Shown here piece after piece: positions 16,524-32,000 of a stretch of 32,000 nt of DNA. The DNA is from Vibrio vulnificus CMCP6. GTDB taxonomy: Bacteria; Pseudomonadota; Gammaproteobacteria; Enterobacterales; Vibrionaceae. The stretch is taken from contig NC_004460.2 in NCBI RefSeq assembly GCF_000039765.1, forward strand, positions 810,001 to 842,000. Reading direction: 5' to 3'. Position 1 is the first letter of the stretch; each line of letters starts with the position of its first letter. A model generated the notes under the pieces. It was not told where the DNA came from and did not search any database. It saw only the letters and a program-made list of their open reading frames with translations. A program made the position numbers and the translations under genes.

Positions 16524-17981
16524 TTATTGATGGGACGACATTTGCACAAACAAGCTTGCCAGTAGAGCGAGCTTGGCGTCAATCTCTTCCTCTGCCACAT
16601 TACCAAATCCCAATACCGCGCCCTGCCAATCTCGTTGCGCGCAGGCTTCACTTTCATAATAGCTTAAAGGACGAATCACAATGCCTTGGCGTAAAGCTGC
16701 GGCGGCCCACTGTTGCTCCGTAGGCCCTTGGAACCAACGTACGGTCACATGCAGCCCTGCGGCTTGGCTGATCACTTCCAAGCGCTGAGAAAAATGACGT
16801 TCAATGCCCGCCACCATCGTTTGGTACTTCTGCGCATAGAGGCGGCGCATCTTACGGATATGACGCATTAACGCGCCATCGGCGATAAATTCCGCCAACG
16901 CAGCTTGAGTATGTGTGGGCGAATCGCCACTCAAGGCATCTTTGATTTCACAGCCCCTATGCACCAGCTCAGGGGGCAAGACAAGGTAGCCAAGTCGCAA
17001 ACCGTTAAACATGATCTTGCTAAATGAACCAATATACATAACGCGATCACTGGCACCAATTTGGCTGGCTAGCCCTTGCAAGCTGGTATAGGGGCGATGA
17101 GCAAACTGGAACTCGCTGTCATAGTCATCTTCAATGATCCAGCACTGTTTCACTCGGGCCCACTCGATGATCTGCACTCTTTGCTCTGTGCTTAAGGTGG
17201 TGCCCATTGGGTATTGATTGCTCGGCGTCAGGTAGACAAAACGACATTCAGAAGCGAGCACATCGGCAACATCAATGCCACTTCTCACTGCGACGTTAAG
17301 GGGCTCCATCGGCATGCCCAATAAGCGGGCCACTTTACGCATTTGGCGGTAACCCGGTTGCTCCATTAACAGTGGATCGCTTGCTTCTTTTGCGCACATC
17401 AGCGCGATGGTTAAGGCCTGCTGTGCGCCAGAGGTAATGATGATTTGCTCAGCTTGGCATTTAACAGAGCGACTCGACGCCAAGTAATCGACCAAAGCGC
17501 ACCTGAGGGCGTAATCCCCTTTGACGATTTGATTGCCTAAGATGGTGCGCCGCGAATGTTGGCGTTGTAGATATTTTTGCCATTCAGGCAGCGGGAATTT
17601 TTCCAGATCCGGCACGCCGGGCGCAAAAGCTCGGTTAATCTTGATGGGTTCAGGCTCTGCCGCGAAGGCTGCCATGCTCTTTTCTTGGGCTGGTGAAATC
17701 GCCATTTCTCCTAGAAAGTGCTCTGGTAGCTCAACCACAACGTAGTAGCCCGCGCCAGCACGACTTTCAATGTAACCCTCCGCACAGAGTTGCTCGTACG
17801 CCGCGATGACGGTGTTGCGGCTCACATTGAGCGCCTGAGCTAACTTACGTGTGGCAGGCAAGCGCCCCTGCTTATTCCAAAGTCCGTGCGTGATTTTTTC
17901 TCGAATGGCGTTGTAAAGATCTTGCTGTAACACACCTGTTTTTGGCGTCAGTGTCAGATCGCCGATTTCAATCGGTAGCAT
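16524..17981 (-). CDS. MocR/PdxR-type regulator (GntR wHTH fused to a fold-type I aminotransferase-like domain)
   Basis: The start was chosen at ATG 17981 (MLPIEIG), which has AAAGGA upstream; the ORF-track TTG at 17999 is less likely. The N-terminal wHTH is LPATRKLAQALNVSRNTVIAAYEQLCAEGYI, followed by a PLP-domain-like region of about 350 aa (SFSKIMFNGLRLGY). Confidence 0.85.
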   Translation of the reverse strand: MLPIEIGDLTLTPKTGVLQQDLYNAIREKITHGLWNKQGRLPATRKLAQALNVSRNTVIAAYEQLCAEGYIESRAGAGYYVVVELPEHFLGEMAISPAQEKSMAAFAAEPEPIKINRAFAPGVPDLEKFPLPEWQKYLQRQHSRRTILGNQIVKGDYALRCALVDYLASSRSVKCQAEQIIITSGAQQALTIALMCAKEASDPLLMEQPGYRQMRKVARLLGMPMEPLNVAVRSGIDVADVLASECRFVYLTPSNQYPMGTTLSTEQRVQIIEWARVKQCWIIEDDYDSEFQFAHRPYTSLQGLASQIGASDRVMYIGSFSKIMFNGLRLGYLVLPPELVHRGCEIKDALSGDSPTHTQAALAEFIADGALMRHIRKMRRLYAQKYQTMVAGIERHFSQRLEVISQAAGLHVTVRWFQGPTEQQWAAAALRQGIVIRPLSYYESEACAQRDWQGAVLGFGNVAEEEIDAKLALLASLFVQMSSHQ

Positions 17982-18854: not shown

Positions 18855-20255
18855 TTAATGGAACGCTTTATCGATTCGAGCTTGATATTTCTTAAAGGCT
18901 TCGTCATCACAAGGCGACGCATTGTCACCATTGTTTTGATTAGGGATCAAGATGCTAAATCGCGCCCCACCCAAATGGCTATCATCGACAGAAAGGTGCC
19001 AGCCTAAACGTTTCGCCGCGCTTGACGCAATCGCCAGTCCAAGACCAAATCCACCAGAGTTGGCATTGCGACTTTGATCTAAACGCGCAAAAGCAATGAA
19101 GATCTCGTCACGTTTATCCAGCGGAATGCCTGGACCATCATCTTCAACGTCAATACACCAGCAGCAATCGAAATCGCGTAGTGTGACGTCTACTCTGCCA
19201 TGACCATAGCGGGCCGCGTTTTTAATCAGGTTATCGAGCACCAATTTGGCTAACGTCGATTCAAACACCATCACGTCGCTGCGGCGGATGCCGTCAGTCT
19301 TCACATCTCCCAAACCGTTGGACATCAACCTTGTGCGACACTCGCAAAACGCCAATAACGATTTCTCTATGCGCATGCTCTCACGATACTCTTTTGTCAG
19401 CGCATTGAGGCGCGAGAGCTGAATGACGTCAGTGGTCAGCTCGTTGATATCTTCTATGTACTCATCAATATCGTCAAAAAGTCGCTGCTGCTCGGCGGGC
19501 ACTTTTCGGCGCACGAGATCGGAAGCCATTTGAATACGGCTGAGTGGCGTGCGAATTTCATGCGGTATTGCCTGAGAAAAAATCTGGCTCTGTTTGACGC
19601 GGCTTTCGATCTCTTCCGCCATCATATTAAAACTGACGGAAGCTTCATGCAGCGGTGACGTGTTGTAGATCTCTGAGCGCACACTCAATTCCCCTTCCCC
19701 AAAGCGCTTTTGCAATGCCACTAAGCGATCTACCCTCTTTCTCACGCGATAGAGAGGCACATAAACCAACAAGGCGAGTGATAGCGCCATCGTGGTCACC
19801 AACATCAGCAAAAATTTGATTTCCGAATCTTCATACCACTCGATATTGGGACTAAAGAAATCGCGTGTTTCTTTAAACACTAAGCTATGGCGAGAGTTTG
19901 GCAGAGGGAATACCGCCAGATAGACGTTTTCTTCGGTGATATAAATTGGCACGGCTTGCAACGTATCCAGCAGTCTGCAGCCATCACAGGGGGGAGAGCC
20001 ATCCCAATTGTCGAGCAAATAGAGTTCAAAAATGTAGAACTTCTGATAATGATTGCGTGCCAGTGCGGAAAATTGAGAATCCGCTTTGGTGCGTTGCTCG
20101 GTATAGAGATCAACAAAGTAGCTGCCATCATTGAGGAAGATTTCAAGATCGGTCTGCCGCATATAATCTTCAGCGAAGTAGAGAAACACAGCGACCGTGA
20201 CAAACAGCCCAATCACCAGCTCCAAATAGAGACAAGTGAACATCGAACGGCGCAT
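18855..20255 (-). CDS. Two-component sensor histidine kinase, RstB-like
   Basis: The protein is 466 aa.
- It has two TM segments and a periplasmic domain containing PPCDGC.
- The region before the H-box (LQKRFGEGELSVRSE...SFNMMAEEIE) and the H-box PHEIRTPLSRI resemble E. coli RstB as I recall it.
- The N and G boxes are DNLIKNAARYG, DDGPGIP and GGFGLGLAIA.
- Its ATG overlaps the response-regulator stop codon (TAATG). Confidence 0.85.
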   Translation of the reverse strand: MRRSMFTCLYLELVIGLFVTVAVFLYFAEDYMRQTDLEIFLNDGSYFVDLYTEQRTKADSQFSALARNHYQKFYIFELYLLDNWDGSPPCDGCRLLDTLQAVPIYITEENVYLAVFPLPNSRHSLVFKETRDFFSPNIEWYEDSEIKFLLMLVTTMALSLALLVYVPLYRVRKRVDRLVALQKRFGEGELSVRSEIYNTSPLHEASVSFNMMAEEIESRVKQSQIFSQAIPHEIRTPLSRIQMASDLVRRKVPAEQQRLFDDIDEYIEDINELTTDVIQLSRLNALTKEYRESMRIEKSLLAFCECRTRLMSNGLGDVKTDGIRRSDVMVFESTLAKLVLDNLIKNAARYGHGRVDVTLRDFDCCWCIDVEDDGPGIPLDKRDEIFIAFARLDQSRNANSGGFGLGLAIASSAAKRLGWHLSVDDSHLGGARFSILIPNQNNGDNASPCDDEAFKKYQARIDKAFH

Positions 20256-20959
20256 TAATGGGTGCCTACTAGCATATATCCGCGATTGCGGATGGTTTTG
20301 ATCACCGCACTTTGTACATTCGCTTGCTGTAACTTTCTTCTTAAGCCCGAGACACGCATATCGATAGAACGATTGTTAAAACTGTATTCAATACCACGTG
20401 CAGCCTGACAGCAGTCATCTCGCGTTACCACTTGATCGATGCTGGCAATAAGAAGCTGTAAGATTTCAAATTCCGACGTTGTTAAGTTAAGTGGTTTATC
20501 AAGATAAGCGGCACTTTGCATTTTTTCGTTAATGCTCAGCCCATACACTTGCTTGATATACGACGGGCTGTCGCTCGGAGATTGAACGCCTCGCTGTAAA
20601 CGCCTCAATAGCGCTTCGATGCGAGCCACCAGCACATGCCCTCGCACGGGCTTAGTCACGTAATCGTCCGCACCAAACTTGAATAGGCACACTTCGCTCA
20701 TCTCATCTTCTGAGGCCGTCAACACCATGATCATGCCCTGATAGAAGTGACGAATTTCTTTACAGATGGTTGCGCCGTCCTTGCCCGGCAACATCAAGTC
20801 GAGTAGTACAATATGCGGCTCATAGGACTTCACTGTCTCTGCGGCATGAGTACCTTCATGAATGACTTTCACTTGATAACCTTCTGCATCTAAATACATT
20901 TTGGTCAATCTCGCGATTTCCAAGTCATCTTCAATCAGTAGAATTTTGCAATCCAACAA
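20255..20959 (-). CDS. OmpR-family response regulator, RstA-like
   Basis: The receiver reads KILLIEDD...VLLDLMLPGKDGATICKEIR...YVTKP, and the wHTH reads RSIDMRVSGLRRKL...IKTIRNRGYML. The gene appears to start at a TTG (no in-frame ATG upstream) with a weak SD. Confidence 0.85.
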   Translation of the reverse strand: MLDCKILLIEDDLEIARLTKMYLDAEGYQVKVIHEGTHAAETVKSYEPHIVLLDLMLPGKDGATICKEIRHFYQGMIMVLTASEDEMSEVCLFKFGADDYVTKPVRGHVLVARIEALLRRLQRGVQSPSDSPSYIKQVYGLSINEKMQSAAYLDKPLNLTTSEFEILQLLIASIDQVVTRDDCCQAARGIEYSFNNRSIDMRVSGLRRKLQQANVQSAVIKTIRNRGYMLVGTH

Positions 20960-21344: not shown

Positions 21345-22049
21345 GTGCGAAAACAACTCCAATCTGTAGCGCTATTCTCGGTTGCTGCAATGCTTACTGC
21401 GTGTGGCTCTGTCGCCATCATGTCCAAATCAGATTTGGTGAAACAACAACCTGAATTGATCATCAAAACGGATGGTGATTTTTGGGGGCTAGGCCAAGAA
21501 GGTACGTTTGATCTCGCCGGTTTGTATAACGGCCAATACTCTCGTCATGCTTCCAATTCTTCATGGTTTGATACCATCTCGACCTCAAAAGGCGAGATGG
21601 CTGCCAATATCACCAACACCCAAAATAACCAGATGTGGACTATGAGTTGTTCAGGCGGTGGCACGAACGTGAACTACATGGGCGTTCAATTTGGTGGCAA
21701 CAAGCCGTATCAGTGCACCATTTTCCAAGCAGGTGAACAAGTGGGTCAGTTCATCATGCAAGAGAAATCGGCGGTGATCGATTTGGGTCTAGAAAAGAAA
21801 GAAACAGGCTACATTGAAGTGGGCCACACTCGCTTTGAACTCGAAACTGTGCATACGGGTGAAGGGCTACTGATGCCGCTTGAATCTCCGCTTGGCTACA
21901 GTTTTAAGCACAATGGCCGTGAAATTGCTGCCGTACAAACCAACGGCATGCTGACGGTGCAATGGCTACCTGAACTGACAAGCCATGAAAAAGACGTGCT
22001 CGCTATTGGCGCGATCGCCGGAGCACTAAGCTGGCGTCCACAAGAATAA
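21345..22049 (+). CDS. Hypothetical lipoprotein (234 aa)
   Basis: The gene has a GTG start with SD GAGAG. The signal peptide carries the lipobox MLTAC|GS. I recognise no family. Confidence 0.7.
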   Translation: MRKQLQSVALFSVAAMLTACGSVAIMSKSDLVKQQPELIIKTDGDFWGLGQEGTFDLAGLYNGQYSRHASNSSWFDTISTSKGEMAANITNTQNNQMWTMSCSGGGTNVNYMGVQFGGNKPYQCTIFQAGEQVGQFIMQEKSAVIDLGLEKKETGYIEVGHTRFELETVHTGEGLLMPLESPLGYSFKHNGREIAAVQTNGMLTVQWLPELTSHEKDVLAIGAIAGALSWRPQE

Positions 22050-23222: not shown

Positions 23223-23558
23223 ATGAGTCTACTTAGTGTGCCGTTCGTTGGAACGGGCGCGGATACTGCCTTGCATGTGATGGCTACCGTCGTATTGGTC
23301 GCAAGTGTTGCGGCAGCGGGATTTGGCTTTTGGAAGATTCACGAGCTCCCCATCAATAAAGCACACAGTAAAGATCATCATCAAATCGGACTCATCACCG
23401 CCCTCACATGGATTGGATTTATTTGGCACTGGGTTTGGGTGCTGGCCGTTATTCTCGCTTTTGTCGACATGGACAAGGCGATTATTCATTTACGTGACAC
23501 TTGGAAAGGCACACCCGAAACCGATGCCCAACAGCAGGAGCAGGAGAACGCGAAATGA
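23223..23558 (+). CDS. DUF3302 family inner-membrane protein (YiaW-like)
   Basis: An SD AGGAG is present. The 111-aa protein contains KIHELPINKAHSKDHHQIGLITALTWIGFIWHWVWVLA, which parallels E. coli YiaW (IHDIPYLIAKKRNHPHADAIHVAGW...) as I recall it. Confidence 0.75.
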   Translation: MSLLSVPFVGTGADTALHVMATVVLVASVAAAGFGFWKIHELPINKAHSKDHHQIGLITALTWIGFIWHWVWVLAVILAFVDMDKAIIHLRDTWKGTPETDAQQQEQENAK

Positions 23559-24778
23559 TTGAAGGTTTAGCGGTATGGGCGCTGTTCATCTATTTGCTAC
23601 GCATGGTGGGCATGCCTTGGAACAAAGGGACGAAAGCTTTTGCTTACATGAGCGGCGTCTCTTGGTTAATGTTTGTTTGGGTTGGGTTGATCAATTTCAC
23701 GCCGATGGACATTTCTGGCGGCTCGGTGGTGCAATCGCCACACATTCAATTGCGCCCGGACTCCAGCAACGTCAACGGTAAAGTTGAAAAAATCTACATT
23801 TCGCCCAATCAAGAGCTCAGCAAAGGTCAGCTCATTTACCAACTGGATGATACGCCCTATCAAATTGCGCTCAACCAAGCCAAAGTGACAAGCCAAGCAG
23901 CGCAAGTGGCTCTTAAAGTCGCACAAGAAGACATCGCCATTGCTCAAGCAAGCCATGAGGCGGCGTTGCAAGACCTAGAAACATCAAAAAGTCAGTTAGC
24001 AGCAGCGAAAGCCGATCATCAGTTGCAAGCCAAAACATTAACGCGATACGTCGAACAAAACCGAGTGGTGAAGAACACCATCACGCAGAATGACATCGAC
24101 AAGCAGACAACGGCAGTGGAACTGGCTAAACAGAACATTGCAACGTTGCAATCGTCCTTGAAGAAGAAAGAAGTCGATGCAAGCCGCGCAAAACTCGACA
24201 TTACCAAGGCTGAGTTGGCCGTCGAAACCCGCACAGCCGATCTTGCCAAGGCGAAAGAGCAAGTTGCACGCGCGCAATGGGATCTTGACAGCACATTGGT
24301 TTACGCACCAGCCGATGGCTTTGTCACCAACTTCATCTTGCGTGAAGGGCAACGTGTTTCCATGATGCCAAGGCTGCAAATGTACACCAACGAAAAGTAC
24401 GTTTTGATGCGTGTTAATCACCAAGCCATTCGCAATGTCAAACCAGGGCAAATGGCGGAGTTCGCCTCTTCGGTCTACCCCGGAAAAATTTTCTCCGCAG
24501 AAGTCGAAGGCATTGTGGAAGCTACTGGAGAAGCGCAAGGCAACCTGCTTGGTTGGGATGACTCAGTGCGCATAACCACTGGCAAAAACCTCGCTAACAA
24601 GCATCACTTTGTGCGTTTAAAAATTGATGAACCAGAAGGCTACGACTTGCCTGTCGGTTCAGTGGGCTTGGCATGGGTCAGCGGAGAAAAGCCCATTGGC
24701 TTCCTCGCTTTCTTAGACGTGATTCGCGGCATCATTATCCGCATGAAATCTCAGTTGTACTTTTTCTACTCCATCTAA
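23555..24778 (+). CDS. HlyD-family membrane-fusion-type protein (YiaV-like)
   Basis: The start ATG at 23555 overlaps the upstream stop codon (ATGA). The protein has an N-terminal TM segment, a long coiled-coil (QAKVTSQAAQVALKVAQEDIAIAQ...), and a barrel-sandwich region (VYAPADGFVTNFILREGQRV). Confidence 0.8.
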   Translation: MIEGLAVWALFIYLLRMVGMPWNKGTKAFAYMSGVSWLMFVWVGLINFTPMDISGGSVVQSPHIQLRPDSSNVNGKVEKIYISPNQELSKGQLIYQLDDTPYQIALNQAKVTSQAAQVALKVAQEDIAIAQASHEAALQDLETSKSQLAAAKADHQLQAKTLTRYVEQNRVVKNTITQNDIDKQTTAVELAKQNIATLQSSLKKKEVDASRAKLDITKAELAVETRTADLAKAKEQVARAQWDLDSTLVYAPADGFVTNFILREGQRVSMMPRLQMYTNEKYVLMRVNHQAIRNVKPGQMAEFASSVYPGKIFSAEVEGIVEATGEAQGNLLGWDDSVRITTGKNLANKHHFVRLKIDEPEGYDLPVGSVGLAWVSGEKPIGFLAFLDVIRGIIIRMKSQLYFFYSI

Positions 24779-24919: not shown

Positions 24920-26266
24920 GTGAGCGAATATCAGGATCTACCCTTACTGATCGAGCAGATTGCACAAGCAGAAGATGCTGAGCAGATCGTTTTGCTCAAC
25001 GATTCCATCGAGCATGGTCTCGAATCCGGCTCGATTGCACTGATTTTAGAATCGCAACCCGTTGATGATCGTGTGCGCTTGTGGCGTGCTTTGCCATTGG
25101 AAATGCACATTGATGTACTAACCGACATGCGTGCCGACGCGCGCTATTCCGTCATCAATGCCTTATCTGAGATAGAACTCAAACTCACCTTAGCGAAACT
25201 TGATAACCTTTCGTTGATCGAATGGGCAGATTCATTGCCTGAAGAGATCATCAACGAAGCACTGTCGTTGATTCAAAAAGATGAACTTGAACTGTTCGAC
25301 TTAGCGAACAAATACGGTGATGACGAGCTAGGCCGTTGGGCTGAGCGAAAAATCATTACCTTACCGTTTAATATCTCTGTTGATCGCGCAAAACGATTGA
25401 TGGAAAAATACAGTTTTGACACGCCGCAGCAAGTCTATCTCATCAATAAAAAGAAACAGTTTCGGGGCGTTGTGAATTACTACGAAATTTTGCGTAGCGA
25501 AGGCCATACCGTACTCAAGAATTTAGTGATTGACCCTGTCATTCTGCTAAGTAGTAAGATGGCGCTGGCGGAAGCCGTCGAAGCCGTCGAGCACAGCTCC
25601 TTACCTGCACTTCCTGTGGTTGATGAAGACCAAACACTGATTGGCGAGGTCGATTGGCAGTTTGCCCTCACCACACAAAGGGAAATTTACGAAGCGCGTT
25701 TAATGGCTGGTACGGGTATGGACGAAGGGGACGATCTCTTCGCGCCAGTCATCAAAAGTTCGAAAAAACGCGGTGTATGGCTCGGGATTAACTTGCTCAC
25801 CGCGATACTTGCCTCTGTCACCATTGGTCTGTTTGAAGACGTGATAGCGCAAGTGGTGGCGCTGGCAGTGTTGATGCCGATAGTCGCTTCCATGGGGGGC
25901 ATTGCCGGTAGCCAAACCTTAACACTGATGGTTCGTGCTATGGCGCTCAATCAGATCACGCCAGGTAACCGCTTTGCCTTGTTCAAAAACGAATTCGGCA
26001 TTGGTGCGATAAATGGCTTGCTTTGGGCGATCATCATCGGCGGGCTTGCGGCTCTTTGGTTCCAGTCCCCTCTCCTTGGCGGAACCATCGCATTAGCGAT
26101 TATCGTTAATATTATTACCGCGGCGATGTTTGGCGTGCTGATTCCAATCATTCTCGACAAATTGGATCTTGATCCTGCACTGGCAGGTTCCGTGATTCTC
26201 ACTACCGTCACGGATGTGGTTGGTTTCTTTGCCTTTCTTGGCACTGCCAGTTTGGTTTTGCTTTAA
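24920..26266 (+). CDS. mgtE: Magnesium transporter MgtE
   Basis: The gene has a GTG start with SD GGGGGA. The 448-aa protein has an N-domain, a CBS pair, and a C-terminal TM domain containing PIVASMGGIAGSQT and TVTDVVGFFAFLG. Confidence 0.9.
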   Translation: MSEYQDLPLLIEQIAQAEDAEQIVLLNDSIEHGLESGSIALILESQPVDDRVRLWRALPLEMHIDVLTDMRADARYSVINALSEIELKLTLAKLDNLSLIEWADSLPEEIINEALSLIQKDELELFDLANKYGDDELGRWAERKIITLPFNISVDRAKRLMEKYSFDTPQQVYLINKKKQFRGVVNYYEILRSEGHTVLKNLVIDPVILLSSKMALAEAVEAVEHSSLPALPVVDEDQTLIGEVDWQFALTTQREIYEARLMAGTGMDEGDDLFAPVIKSSKKRGVWLGINLLTAILASVTIGLFEDVIAQVVALAVLMPIVASMGGIAGSQTLTLMVRAMALNQITPGNRFALFKNEFGIGAINGLLWAIIIGGLAALWFQSPLLGGTIALAIIVNIITAAMFGVLIPIILDKLDLDPALAGSVILTTVTDVVGFFAFLGTASLVLL

Positions 26267-26310
26267 GCGGCCATCACCGCATTAAGGACCTTGACCTCAA
26301 GGTGAAAGTA

Positions 26311-26337
26311 AACGGAAGCTCGAAGCTTCCGTTTTTT
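26311..26337 (+). terminator. Rho-independent terminator of mgtE
   Basis: The motif is AACGGAAGCT-CGA-AGCTTCCGTT followed by TTTT. Confidence 0.85.
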
Positions 26338-26486
26338 ATTCCGTTGTTCTGCCTTTGACTTTATCAACCCAAACCACACTGACATCACACTCCCTCACTG
26401 GGCTAAACACCTCACCCAATTTATAAATAGATTCATTATTAGCTTTAGTTATTACACCACCCTATCAATAGCGTTTTAATTATAAA

Positions 26487-26512
26487 TTGCAAAACGCAAT
26501 TGCAATTTGCAA
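26487..26512 (+). promoter_or_regulatory. Two abutting LuxO-type enhancer sites
   Basis: The sites are TTGCAAAACGCAA (26487-26499, one mismatch) and TTGCAATTTGCAA (26500-26512, a perfect match to TTGCA-N3-TGCAA). They lie about 75-100 bp upstream of the -24 element. Confidence 0.75.
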
Positions 26513-26584
26513 TCACCTCAGAAAACTAAGCAACCAATGTCACAGAAACCATGGTAAAAACGCGGAATTTGGCGCTAAAAAAAG

Positions 26585-26602
26585 TTGGCACGCTTTCTGC
26601 TT
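26585..26602 (+). promoter_or_regulatory. Sigma-54 (-24/-12) promoter of the qrr gene
   Basis: The sequence is TTGGCACGCTTTCTGCTT, with GG at 26587-88 and GC at 26599-600. This is the canonical TGGCAC-N5-yTGC spacing. The sRNA 5' end lies 12 nt downstream. Confidence 0.8.
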
Positions 26603-26611
26603 ATATAAACG

Positions 26612-26719
26612 TGACCCTTATTAAGCCGAGGGTCACCTAGCCAACTGACGTTGTTAGTGAACTTGATTTGTTCACATGTATATAAGCCAATCGCACCTTT
26701 TGCGGTTGGCTCTTTTTTT
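26612..26719 (+). ncRNA. qrr: Qrr quorum-regulatory sRNA (Qrr2-4-like paralog), 108 nt
   Basis: The sRNA has four elements:
- a 5' hairpin TGACCCT/AGGGTCA
- the invariant core GGGTCACCTAGCCAACTGACGTTGTTAGTGAA
- a second hairpin GTGAAC/GTTCAC
- a terminator AGCCAATCGCA/TGCGGTTGGCT followed by CT7. Confidence 0.9.
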
Positions 26720-26826
26720 ATCTATCCGCTCTAACTTCCCTACGAAACACTTTCCTTTCTTTGTCAAATTCTCTTAGGCTATCGAGAGATTCATTATTCA
26801 AAAGCCATCATTGCAATCCATCCGTC

Positions 26827-27735
26827 ATGATTATGAAAACCAATTATCAACAACGTTTGATCCCTGTGATTCGCTATCTCGAGAACCACTTTGACACGCC
26901 TCTAAACCTAGAAGAAGTGGCTCGTCTGGCCCACCTTTCTCCTTACCATTTCCATCGCATCTTTAAAGCGGTCACTGGTGAGACGCTTAATGAATACTTG
27001 CGTCGCCTTCGACTGGAAAAGATTGCCAATCTGCTGTTTTACAGCAAACCCAGCGTGACTGAGGTGGCGCTAGACTATGGATTCTCCAGCTCGCAAAGCT
27101 TAGCGAAAGCATTTCGGCAGCATTTTGGACTTACGCCCTCACAGATTCGACAGTGTGAAACGCTTGAACAGTTTGCTCTGGTGCTACAAGAGAGCAAGAT
27201 AGGACACACGCTGCGCAAGAATGGACACGAAGCACTCACTGAACCCTCATACACTGGAGGGGAATCACAAACATGGAGTAGCACAATGGATATTCAAACA
27301 TTCCCAGCCAGTAAAATTGCTTATATTCGTGTCACTGGTGAGTACGGCAAAAACTACGAATCAGCCACACAAAAGTTATATCAATGGGCAGGACCACGTG
27401 GTTTGGCGGGCAACACCTGTATTTTCATTTATCACGATAACCCTGAGATTACCCCTGCGGACAAATGTCGAACGGACATCTGCTTGCTCAACTGTGAAAA
27501 TGCGGAGGGAAATGGCGAGCTCGAAATCAAAGACTTTCCTGGCGGTGAGTATGCGTTCATCCGTAAAACCATTACCGATAACGCGCAATATGCCACCGCG
27601 TGGGACGAGTTGATGGCACGGCTTGTCGAGCGTGGCTTGGAGTCGGATGAGCGTCCTTGCTTTGAGCTGTATCATTCCTATGATCCACAGACCCAGCACG
27701 CGGATGTCAGTTTCTGCACTGCCGTTACAGCCTAA
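26827..27735 (+). CDS. AraC-family regulator with a C-terminal GyrI-like effector-binding domain (Rob/SoxS-type N-terminus)
   Basis: The start was chosen at ATG 26827 (MIMKTNYQQRLIPVIRYLENH). The HTH pair is LEEVARLAHLSPYHFHRIFK...VALDYGFSSSQSLAKAFRQHFGLTPSQIR. The C-terminal half is GyrI-like (YIRVTGEYG...GGEYAFIRK). Confidence 0.8.
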   Translation: MIMKTNYQQRLIPVIRYLENHFDTPLNLEEVARLAHLSPYHFHRIFKAVTGETLNEYLRRLRLEKIANLLFYSKPSVTEVALDYGFSSSQSLAKAFRQHFGLTPSQIRQCETLEQFALVLQESKIGHTLRKNGHEALTEPSYTGGESQTWSSTMDIQTFPASKIAYIRVTGEYGKNYESATQKLYQWAGPRGLAGNTCIFIYHDNPEITPADKCRTDICLLNCENAEGNGELEIKDFPGGEYAFIRKTITDNAQYATAWDELMARLVERGLESDERPCFELYHSYDPQTQHADVSFCTAVTA

Positions 27736-27961: not shown

Positions 27962-28023
27962 ACGCGCCGTTTACCCAAAATTTGGGTCTATAATGACTAT
28001 TCTATTGTATCGTGGAGGTAAAA

Positions 28024-29262
28024 ATGGCGGCCGATAATAACTTCAGTTTGGGCCCGGTTCCCAACTCAGCCAGAAAAGGCGTTGCGTCTTTAACCATGGT
28101 GATGTTAGGGCTCACTTTCTTCTCCGCGAGTATGTGGACGGGCGGTTCACTCGGTACTGGACTCTCATTTAACGATTTCTTCCTCGCTGTTCTCATTGGT
28201 AACCTCATCCTCGGTATTTACACTTCTTTCCTAGGTTACATCGGCGCTTCTACTGGTCTCTCTACTCACCTTCTTGCTCGTTTCTCTTTTGGCTCTAAAG
28301 GCTCTTGGCTTCCTTCCGCACTGCTTGGTGGTACACAAGTCGGTTGGTTTGGTGTTGGCGTGGCCATGTTTGCGATTCCAGTCAACAAAGCGACAGGCAT
28401 TGATACCAATACCCTCATCGTCATTTCTGGTCTATTAATGACGGCGACGGTTTACTTCGGTATCTCTGCGCTGATGGTGCTATCTGCCATTGCAGTACCA
28501 GCAATTGCGTTACTCGGCGGATACTCGGTAGTAGAAGCGGTAAACAGCGTGGGTGGTGTGGCAGAGCTGCAAAAAGTACAACCTGCGCAACCGCTGGACT
28601 TCTCTGTGGCTCTCGCCATGGTAGTTGGCTCTTTCATCAGTGCAGGGACGCTGACCGCAGACTTCGTACGATTCGGCAGAAAGCCAAAAGGCGCGGTGAT
28701 GGTCACTATGGTGGCATTCTTTATCGGCAACTCACTGATGTTTATCTTTGGCGCTGCGGGCGCGGCAGTCACTGGTCAATCCGACATCTCCGAAGTGATG
28801 ATTGCGCAAGGTCTGCTTATCCCGGCGATCATTGTGCTTGGTTTGAATATCTGGACCACCAACGACAACGCGCTTTACGCATCCGGTCTAGGCTTCTCTA
28901 ACATCACAGGCTTGCCAAGCAAATACATCTCCATGGTGAACGGTTTGGTCGGCACGTTATGCGCACTATGGCTGTACAATAACTTTGTCGGCTGGCTAAC
29001 CTTCCTGTCGCTTGCCATTCCACCCATTGGTGGCGTCATCATTGCGGATTTCTTTATCAACCGTAAACGTTATTCCAATTTCGCCGCAGCAGAGTTCCAA
29101 ACAGTCAACTGGGCTGGCATTATCGCCGTAGCGATTGGTGTGGTTGCAGGTCACTTCCTACCAGGTGTAGTACCTGTCAATGCGGTACTCGGCGGCACAA
29201 TCAGCTACCTGATTCTCAATCCTATTCTAAATAAAAAGAGACTGGCCGAACTGCCAGCGTAA
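28024..29262 (+). CDS. codB: Cytosine permease CodB
   Basis: The start is at the ATG after SD GGAGG. MAADNNFSLGPVPNSARKGV...LGLTFFSASMWTGG...NIWTTNDNALYASGLGF is nearly colinear with E. coli CodB as I recall it. Confidence 0.92.
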   Translation: MAADNNFSLGPVPNSARKGVASLTMVMLGLTFFSASMWTGGSLGTGLSFNDFFLAVLIGNLILGIYTSFLGYIGASTGLSTHLLARFSFGSKGSWLPSALLGGTQVGWFGVGVAMFAIPVNKATGIDTNTLIVISGLLMTATVYFGISALMVLSAIAVPAIALLGGYSVVEAVNSVGGVAELQKVQPAQPLDFSVALAMVVGSFISAGTLTADFVRFGRKPKGAVMVTMVAFFIGNSLMFIFGAAGAAVTGQSDISEVMIAQGLLIPAIIVLGLNIWTTNDNALYASGLGFSNITGLPSKYISMVNGLVGTLCALWLYNNFVGWLTFLSLAIPPIGGVIIADFFINRKRYSNFAAAEFQTVNWAGIIAVAIGVVAGHFLPGVVPVNAVLGGTISYLILNPILNKKRLAELPA

Positions 29263-29271
29263 GGAACCATC

Positions 29272-30549
29272 ATGACAACACTATTGATCAAGAACGCAAC
29301 GCTTAAGGGACAGGAAGGTCTCCAGCAAATTTTGATTGAGGATGGTCAATTCACGCGTATTGAAAACAACAATGTCGAACTCAATTACACTGGTGACGTT
29401 CTTGATGCCGAGGGCGGCATGGCGGTCGCCCCGTTCTGCGAGCCGCACATTCACCTTGATACCACGCAAACCGCGGGTGAGCCAAGCTGGAATATCTCCG
29501 GGACACTTTTCGAAGGCATCGAGCGTTGGGCTGAGCGCAAAGAGACGCTGTCGATTGAAGATGTCAAATCGCGCGCGAAGCAAACACTTAAGTGGCAAAT
29601 CGCCAACGGTGTGCAACACGTTCGTACTCATGTTGACGTATCAGACCCGACTCTAATCGCGCTAAAAGCGATGGTGGAAGTGCGTGAAGAGATGAAAGAG
29701 TGGGTAGACATCCAAATCGTTGCATTTCCGCAAGAAGGCATTCTGTCTTACCCGAACGGCAAAGAGTTGCTAGAAGAAGCGGTTCAATTGGGTGCGGATG
29801 TGATTGGTGCGATCCCTCACTTTGAATTCACCCGCGAATACGGCATCGAGTCGCTGCATTATGTGTTTGAACTGGCCCAAAAATACGATCGTTTGATCGA
29901 TGTGCACTGTGATGAGATTGATGATGAGCAATCGCGCTTTGTTGAAACGCTGGCAGCACTGGCACACAAGTTCAACATGGGTCACAAGGTAACCGCAAGC
30001 CATACAACGGCAATGGGTTCTTATAACGGTGCGTACGCCTCTCGCCTCTTCCGTTTGCTGCGCATGTCGGGCATCAACTTCGTGGCGAACCCGCTGGTCA
30101 ACATCCACCTTCAAGGTCGCTTTGATGACTACCCGAAACGCCGTGGTGTCACGCGCGTAAAAGAGATGCTCAACGCCAACATCAACGTCTGTTTTGGTCA
30201 CGATGACGTGTTTGATCCTTGGTACCCACTAGGCACAGCAAACATGCTGCAAGTGCTGCACATGGGTCTGCATGTTTGCCAAGTGATGGGATACGACCAA
30301 ATCAACACCTCACTTGATCTGATCAGCACCAACTCAGCGCGTACGCTGAACATTCAAGACAAGCACGGTATTGAAGCAGGTAAACCTGGTAGCTTGCTGA
30401 TCCTTCCAGCGGAAAATGGTTTTGATGCTGTGCGTCGCCAAGTGCCGGTTCGTTACTCTGTTCGTCACGGTAAAGTGATTGCGGAAACGCAACCTGCGAC
30501 AACGCACATCCACCTTGGTGAGCGTGAACAAGTCACTTTTCAGCGCTAA
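29272..30549 (+). CDS. codA: Cytosine deaminase CodA
   Basis: The metal-binding motif [13 protein letters not shown], plus [22 protein letters not shown] and [15 protein letters not shown], are colinear with E. coli CodA as I recall it. Confidence 0.92.
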
Positions 30550-30602: not shown

Positions 30603-30804
30603 CATTCAACCCCATTAATATGGAATCAATCTCACATAAATATTAAGTAATTTAATAATAAATTGTGGAATATTTGCGCACTTAAAAAATCACGACTAGT
30701 GTTAAGACAACCCAGTGAACCTGAAAAGAGATAGCGAATTTTCAGAATTCACTAACAACGTCACACTCACAACTCTCATATCAATGATAATAACTCAATA
30801 TTAA

Positions 30805-30871: not shown

Positions 30872-32000
30872 TCACTTTCTCAGCGCGTTGAGTTTGGCTT
30901 GAGCAATACCAAAGATAGTGTCAATGGGGTAGCTGCCATCATCGGTGGGCTCGCCCGCCGATTTGCCGGTAAAGATCTCAATTGCTTCAGTGACATGGTC
31001 AATCGCCCAAATATGGAAATCGCCTTTTTCTACGGCTTTAACAATATCTGGTCTCAACATCAGATTATGCACATTCGAGCGTGGAATAATCACCCCTTGT
31101 TGATCATGACGACCTTTGATAGCACACACATCAAAGAAGCCTTCGATCTTCTCGTTTACCCCGCCAATCGGCTGTGACTCACCAAATTGGTTCATCGAGC
31201 CGGTGATCGCGATATCCTGTCGGTTTGGCTGTTTAGAAAACGCCGACACAACGGCACACAACTCCGCCATGCTGGCGCTATCGCCGTCCACACCGCCATA
31301 CGATTGCTCAAACGTAATCGTCGTCGTCAGTGGCACTTTCGCATTACGGCCAAATACCGATGAGAGGTAAGCCGACAATATCATCACGCCTTTAGAGTGA
31401 ATGCTGCCCCCCAAATCCACGCTACGTTCAATATCGATCACCTCACCATCACCATAACAAGTGGTGGCAGTAATACGGTTTGGCGCGCCAAATGCGTGAT
31501 CACTGGTACTCAAAACAGAAAGTGCATTTACTTGGCCCACCGCACTACCTTCGGTACGAATTAACGTGGTGCCATTAATAAATCCTTCCATCACAGCATC
31601 TTGCAATCGGCTCACTCGCATTTCTTGATTGCTCAGAGCCTCCTCAACGTGACCGATGCGGATCATGTTAGAGTTAGACTGCTTGGCCACATAGTTCGAC
31701 TCACGTAGCAAATTGGCAATGTGCGCCGAATGCAATGAGAGCTTGCCTTGGTCTCCCACTAGACGAGAGCTGTGCTCAATGATGCGCGCAATGGCTTTCT
31801 TATCGCAATGCAGCATGCCATTGTCGTGCACCACACTGGAGATAAAGCGCGCGTACTGAAGTTCAGATTCCGGTGTACGCTTCATTTCATCTTCAAAATC
31901 GGCCGTGACTCGGAACAGCTCGCTGAACTCTGGATCGTAGTGTTGTAACAACTGATACGTGCGATAGTCGCCAAACAAAATGATCTTAATGTCGAGAGGA
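30872..32000 (-). CDS. Lon-like (S16 family) ATP-dependent protease, C-terminal part; the gene continues past the right edge
   Basis: The Lon proteolytic domain shows a Ser-Lys dyad context (GGVDGDSASMAELCAVVSAF and IGGVNEKIEGFF). The reading frame stays open upstream of the ORF-track TTG (..LDIKIILFGDY..) up to position 32000. Confidence 0.85.
   Translation of the reverse strand, partial: PLDIKIILFGDYRTYQLLQHYDPEFSELFRVTADFEDEMKRTPESELQYARFISSVVHDNGMLHCDKKAIARIIEHSSRLVGDQGKLSLHSAHIANLLRESNYVAKQSNSNMIRIGHVEEALSNQEMRVSRLQDAVMEGFINGTTLIRTEGSAVGQVNALSVLSTSDHAFGAPNRITATTCYGDGEVIDIERSVDLGGSIHSKGVMILSAYLSSVFGRNAKVPLTTTITFEQSYGGVDGDSASMAELCAVVSAFSKQPNRQDIAITGSMNQFGESQPIGGVNEKIEGFFDVCAIKGRHDQQGVIIPRSNVHNLMLRPDIVKAVEKGDFHIWAIDHVTEAIEIFTGKSAGEPTDDGSYPIDTIFGIAQAKLNALRK

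Follow-up and report, generated by a model that had tools for sequence, protein, structure and literature searches.

A Qrr small RNA gene orthologous to qrr3 between the mgtE-type and codBA genes of Vibrio vulnificus chromosome 2

Gene content of the locus and the Qrr RNA

The window, i.e. the whole 32,000-nt stretch of V. vulnificus CMCP6 DNA that was analysed, contains a 560-bp intergenic region (26267-26826) with a series of forward-strand genes on both sides. Upstream lie the genes of an HlyD-type adaptor (23501-24778) and an MgtE-type transporter (24920-26266), and downstream those of a regulator with an AraC-type HTH and a GyrI-like domain (26827-27735), CodB (28012-29262) and CodA (29272-30549). 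These are followed on the reverse strand by the gene of a LonB-like protein (30872-31978). Further upstream, an RstAB-like two-component pair, response regulator and histidine kinase (18855-20959, reverse strand), and a VV20781-family lipoprotein gene (21345-22049, forward strand) were found. V. vulnificus entries match three of these proteins exactly: the AraC/GyrI regulator, the MgtE-type transporter and the VV20781-family protein, the last with an entry from CMCP6 among them. The taxonomic context that the first-pass annotation had deduced from the Qrr RNA agrees with these flanking proteins, and its assignments of the AraC + GyrI-like regulator, codB and codA were correct. The reading frame of the AraC/GyrI regulator is open from 26761, with an ATG at 26827. 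The RNA gene lies upstream of this regulator as had been described, but the distance given, 108 nt, is 107 nt when counted to the ATG; a second ATG, which is used in most annotations, is 113 nt from the end of the RNA gene.

The intergenic region had been described as free of ORFs, and only two short ones were detected in it: a 41-aa ORF on the reverse strand (26263-26388) and a 45-aa ORF with a TTG start (26487-26624). An intrinsic terminator of the upstream mgtE-type gene, an 11-bp stem followed by a T-run, is located at 26310-26334, 44 nt past the stop codon, and marks the upstream limit of the qrr regulatory region.

The whole window was scanned against Rfam 15. The only match above threshold was RF00378 (Qrr) at 26612-26719 on the forward strand, with a score of 110.9 bits and an E-value of 7.1e-21, covering model positions 1-108 of 108. 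This score is more than 2-fold higher than the gathering cut-off of the family, 50 bits. The first-pass annotation had claimed a complete Qrr locus and named the Rfam covariance model as the search on which the claim could fail; since the match is full-length and far above the cut-off, the Qrr identity stands. All the elements that had been listed for the locus were found where they had been placed.

The 108-nt RNA comprises the stem-loops SL1 (26612-26635), SL2 (26638-26656) and SL3 (26657-26675), the terminator hairpin SL4 (26685-26711) and a U-tail (26712-26719), all on the forward strand. The invariant 32-nt core GGGUCACCUAGCCAACUGACGUUGUUAGUGAA, the target-pairing region, is matched exactly at 26630-26661, and the pairing region is identical to that of experimentally characterised Qrrs. 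The minimum free energy structure consists of four hairpins with an energy of -38.3 kcal/mol. The mean energy of 200 shuffled sequences was -20.6 kcal/mol, resulting in a z-score of -5.5, and none of the 200 folded as well as the Qrr RNA. The terminator, which was also detected independently of the fold, has a stem of 11 bp, 6 of them GC pairs, and then U7 (T7 in the DNA). In an alignment of 25 diverse Qrr members, compensatory changes were determined in nine pairs of the terminator and SL3; eight of the nine belong to the terminator stem. As the 5' hairpins and the core are invariant in this alignment, they are uninformative on covariation, either way. The transcription starts of V. parahaemolyticus qrr2-4 were mapped by primer extension 1 nt downstream of the predicted U (PMC3323551); due to this offset, the true 5' end may be 26613, corresponding to an RNA of 107 nt.

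In four other V. vulnificus assemblies the gene has the same sequence (100% identity), and the entire 560-bp region is 99.8-100% identical. The nearest other species among the matches listed was V. floridensis, the Qrr of which shares 98% identity and lies in the same HlyD-MgtE-Qrr-AraC/GyrI-codBA context. A search of viral contigs with the Qrr core gave no matches.

Promoter and upstream sites

The sequence TGGCACGCTTTCTGCT at 26586-26601 on the forward strand is a predicted sigma-54 (RpoN) promoter; its GG falls at -25/-24 and its GC at -13/-12, counted from 26612. For comparison, at least 120 Vibrionaceae loci with the exact 32-nt core were available among the matches listed, and the promoter counts were based on the 96 Qrr copies having at least 200 nt of upstream sequence, the window copy included. 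Among these, GG was found at the same position in 93 and GC in 91 copies, so that the -24 GG/-12 GC spacing proposed by the first-pass annotation matches the norm of the loci listed. The -12 region reads CTGCT compared with the TTGCW consensus, which is a common variant within the Qrr family, and the complete 16-mer is identical in V. floridensis. The predicted promoter architecture is an ordinary example of a Qrr gene. An overlapping sigma-70 promoter, as in V. parahaemolyticus qrr2, was also considered and none was detected on the forward strand: a TTGGCA hexamer lies only 11-13 nt from TATATA/TATAAA motifs, and this spacer is too short for sigma-70.

Two abutting 13-mers, the second of them perfect, had been proposed as LuxO sites. 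They are found at 26487-26499 (-125..-113; TTGCAAAACGCAA, one mismatch to TTGCANNNTGCAA) and 26500-26512 (-112..-100; TTGCAATTTGCAA, a perfect palindrome without mismatches). These two are the only matches to TTGCANNNTGCAA with at most one mismatch in the 32-kb window; taken singly, such matches are not above chance (3.4 expected), and the case for LuxO sites rests therefore on their location and not on their existence. According to PMC11443567, every V. vulnificus qrr promoter contains the LuxO consensus, TTGCAW3TGCAA. Among the matches listed, 91 of the 96 Qrr loci have one or more LuxO-type sites within 200 nt upstream. In the same loci the sites cluster at -125/-112 and -114/-101 as abutting 13-mers, which is the commonest arrangement. 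The pair at -125..-100 from the 110-bit Qrr match is thus family-typical and lies in the stretch of about 90-155 nt upstream where such sites are expected in Qrr genes; its position is kept in the syntenic orthologues. In the alignment of these orthologues, the LuxO sites and the -24/-12 elements are retained and the other upstream sequence is largely unalignable across clades.

Downstream of the LuxO sites and ahead of the sigma-54 promoter, a further conserved segment was found on the forward strand at 26530-26550 (-82..-62), the 21-nt block GCAACCAATGTCACAGAAACC. Among the matches listed, five other loci syntenic with qrr3, from the Vulnificus and Harveyi clades, retain it with at most 4 mismatches, and none of the 83 non-syntenic Qrr loci contains it. 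The promoter sequence around the block is mostly unalignable between these two clades, which also differ by an 11-nt indel between the block and the promoter. In V. cholerae qrr promoters, binding of Fis has been reported for the stretch that separates the LuxO from the sigma-54 sites (PMC2680268). The block is possibly a site for a DNA-bending protein, for which Fis would be a candidate.

At 26422-26441 (-190..-171, forward strand), 45 bp upstream of the LuxO-type sites, a predicted LuxR/SmcR-type box, TATAAATAGATTCATTATTA, was found. It differs by one mismatch from TATAAATAGATTTATTATTA, which was predicted in 2012 at -191..-172 of qrr3 of V. vulnificus YJ016 by Zhang et al. (PMC3323551). The agreement with the LuxR consensus TATTGATAAATTTATCAATAA is moderate (15/21, a score reached at 8 positions of the window). 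With the Fur consensus, the box gives the best match of the intergenic region (13/19, reached at 24 positions of the window). In V. harveyi, qrr2-4 are activated directly by LuxR, whose sites precede the LuxO sites by about 30-40 bp (PMC2680268). In V. floridensis the intergenic region is shorter upstream and the box is not conserved; the box lies just beyond the part of the intergenic region that can still be aligned with that species. It is also not aligned with the LuxR/OpaR site footprinted in V. parahaemolyticus. SmcR feedback or a Fur input via this box would be speculative. Outside the qrr region, the best matches of the window to the 21-bp LuxR/SmcR consensus (15-16/21) are at 30640-30661, 17014-17035 and 665-686; the one near 30641 is just downstream of codA. 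They could reflect either genuine SmcR sites or no more than chance in AT-rich DNA.

It is rather unlikely that the block at -82..-62 and the composite box at -190..-171 represent undescribed, paralogue-specific inputs of the qrr3 promoter. If they did, the block could serve a dedicated regulator or a positioned bending protein, and the V. vulnificus-specific SmcR-like/Fur-like box could integrate the feedback of the master regulator and iron at one paralogue. The qrr3-specific block is only a modest lead, which might help to explain the differing expression among Qrr paralogues.

Paralogue assignment and alternative readings

The paralogue was assigned by position. According to Zhang et al. 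(2012; PMC3323551), qrr3 of V. parahaemolyticus lies between VPA1240 and VPA1241; the oligonucleotides used are given there as well. The forward and reverse EMSA primers and the primer-extension oligonucleotide of qrr3 each map with one mismatch to L119, an mgtE-Qrr-codB locus of a close V. parahaemolyticus relative, where the forward EMSA primer falls within the 3' end of mgtE; the oligonucleotides of qrr2 and qrr4 map best to other loci. As the qrr3 oligonucleotides point to the mgtE-Qrr-codB slot, the gene in the window is the positional orthologue of qrr3. The primer-extension target of V. parahaemolyticus qrr3, GTTGTTAGTGAACTTGATT, is also matched exactly at 26650-26668. Among the matches listed, the (HlyD)-MgtE/(AraC/GyrI)-codBA slot holds a Qrr gene in many species, including V. 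floridensis, V. owensii, V. jasicida, V. atypicus, V. splendidus, V. chagasii, V. bivalvicida, V. sinensis and V. metoecus. Family membership, the architecture and conservation of the promoter and activator sites, the species and the positional orthology to qrr3 are supported directly. We are highly confident that the element is a qrr3-orthologous Qrr sRNA gene of V. vulnificus chromosome 2.

In V. bivalvicida the Qrr copy most similar to that of the window (L085, 93%) is not syntenic, and the syntenic copy (L022) is 87% identical. This mismatch suggests that turnover of paralogues or gene conversion has occurred among the Qrr copies of some lineages. Due to this conflict between similarity and synteny, assignment of paralogues across distant species by similarity alone was rejected, and 'qrr3' is to be read as a positional label, reliable only in the Vulnificus, Harveyi and related clades. 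The numbering of qrr genes in V. vulnificus may also differ between laboratories. The most highly expressed gene is qrr2 in one report (PMC11443567), and the highest read depth is that of 'Qrr3' in another (PMC10840491); the names used in these two reports are not tied to coordinates, and the text and supplement of PMC10840491 contain no coordinates or sequences that connect its 'Qrr3' with the present locus. A literature search under the locus tags VPA1240/1241, VV2_0785/6 and VVA1249/50 gave nothing further.

The region could also be read as encoding a small protein, instead of or besides the RNA, as the 45-aa and 41-aa ORFs are mechanically present. The probability of this is practically negligible: the 45-aa frame starts in the LuxO palindrome, crosses the sigma-54 promoter and ends after the first 13 nt of the RNA, it contains the 11-nt indel by which the Harveyi and Vulnificus clades differ, and what the species have in common is a pattern of separate DNA sites and RNA structure rather than a conserved frame. 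It is likewise extremely unlikely that the gene is a silent or vestigial copy which has the sequence of the family and is not appreciably expressed or used. Not every Qrr paralogue is active, since V. harveyi qrr5 was reported to be outside cell-density control under laboratory conditions (PMC2680268). Here, however, none of the promoter, the two LuxO-type sites, the core and the terminator is disrupted, the intergenic region is nearly invariant in the four other V. vulnificus assemblies, and the regulatory elements are kept across clades. In addition, reads were obtained from V. vulnificus cells for each of the five Qrrs (PMC10840491), and the qrr3 orthologues of V. harveyi and V. parahaemolyticus are expressed and activated by LuxR/OpaR.

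The adjacency of the RNA to the AraC/GyrI regulator and codBA, hinted at as meaningful by the first-pass annotation, raises the question of whether the Qrr acts locally, as a leader or cis-regulator of these genes, by read-through of its terminator or by pairing with their mRNA. The genes are on the same strand and only 107 nt separate the end of the RNA from the AraC/GyrI ATG. In V. vulnificus and V. floridensis the regulator gene separates qrr3 from codB, and homologues with 61-63% identity follow a Qrr gene in V. metoecus, V. sonorensis and strain HQB-39. When the loci with the AraC/GyrI gene (L040, L074, L106 and L114) were compared with L058, L119, L095 and L017, the gene was absent from the slots of the Harveyi and Splendidus clades, where the Qrr adjoins codB directly. 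The strong terminator with its 6 GC pairs and U7 argues against read-through. For AraC/GyrI, codB, codA, mgtE and six further genes of the window, duplexes of the Qrr seed with the gene start had energies no better than those of 395 random windows, and the four neighbours fell in the weaker half of these controls. Qrr sRNAs are, moreover, established as trans-acting. A local role is therefore very unlikely, and the suggestion of a meaningful adjacency was not upheld. The reading preferred here is that of a trans-acting qrr3 orthologue.

Predicted mode of action and comparison with known systems

By analogy with characterised Qrr systems, LuxO~P would bind the tandem TTGCAW3TGCAA sites at -125..-100 at low cell density and, via DNA looping, would activate sigma-54 RNA polymerase at the -24/-12 promoter. 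Transcription from 26612 or 26613 to the intrinsic terminator would yield a transcript of about 108 nt. Acting with Hfq, this RNA would then pair, through its invariant 32-nt region, with mRNAs encoded elsewhere in the genome; smcR (the luxR/hapR homologue), luxO and aphA all lie outside the window. By this pairing the Qrr is expected to repress smcR and luxO and to activate aphA, so that the low-density programme would be held. The dependence on LuxO and sigma-54, the dependence on Hfq and the set of targets are transferred to this locus from the literature and are probable to that extent. For the species itself, Wen et al. (2016), as related in PMC5225090 and PMC8764119, reported LuxO~P/RpoN-dependent expression of the qrr genes at low cell density. 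According to the same accounts, LuxO regulates the Qrr sRNAs, these act on SmcR, and Fur-iron represses each of the five qrr genes. Reads of Qrr1-5 were detected in V. vulnificus cells (PMC10840491).

The family is well studied and has already been studied in V. vulnificus, and the element is therefore already known. As far as the work of Wen et al. 2016 (J Biol Chem 291:14213) is represented in the accounts cited above, its qrr1-5 are of the same species and the same gene set. The value of the present assignment is mainly in annotation, by which a quorum-sensing regulator is placed in an unannotated gap and the window is recognised as part of V. vulnificus chromosome 2.

Like V. parahaemolyticus qrr2, the locus combines a Qrr gene with a sigma-54 promoter and, by prediction, control by LuxO. 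The sigma-70/sigma-54 dual promoter of that gene, which was reported as unique to it, differs from the present promoter, where the forward strand has no overlapping -35/-10 pair. The similarity to qrr3 of V. parahaemolyticus and V. harveyi is more extensive. The full-length RF00378 match, the 32-nt core and the four stem-loops are common to the Qrr family and these genes, and the sigma-54 -24/-12 promoter, the tandem LuxO sites and the mgtE-codBA slot are shared with both qrr3 genes. In contrast to these species, V. vulnificus and V. floridensis have the additional AraC/GyrI gene before codB. The LuxR/OpaR box footprinted in V. parahaemolyticus at -154..-125 has no good counterpart at the aligned position, and the box predicted in V. 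vulnificus is further upstream, at -190..-171. The mgtE/qrr3/codBA slot is a stable landmark across Vibrio, and, to judge from the known systems, the RNA and its predicted control conform to the established LuxO-sigma-54-Qrr-Hfq model.
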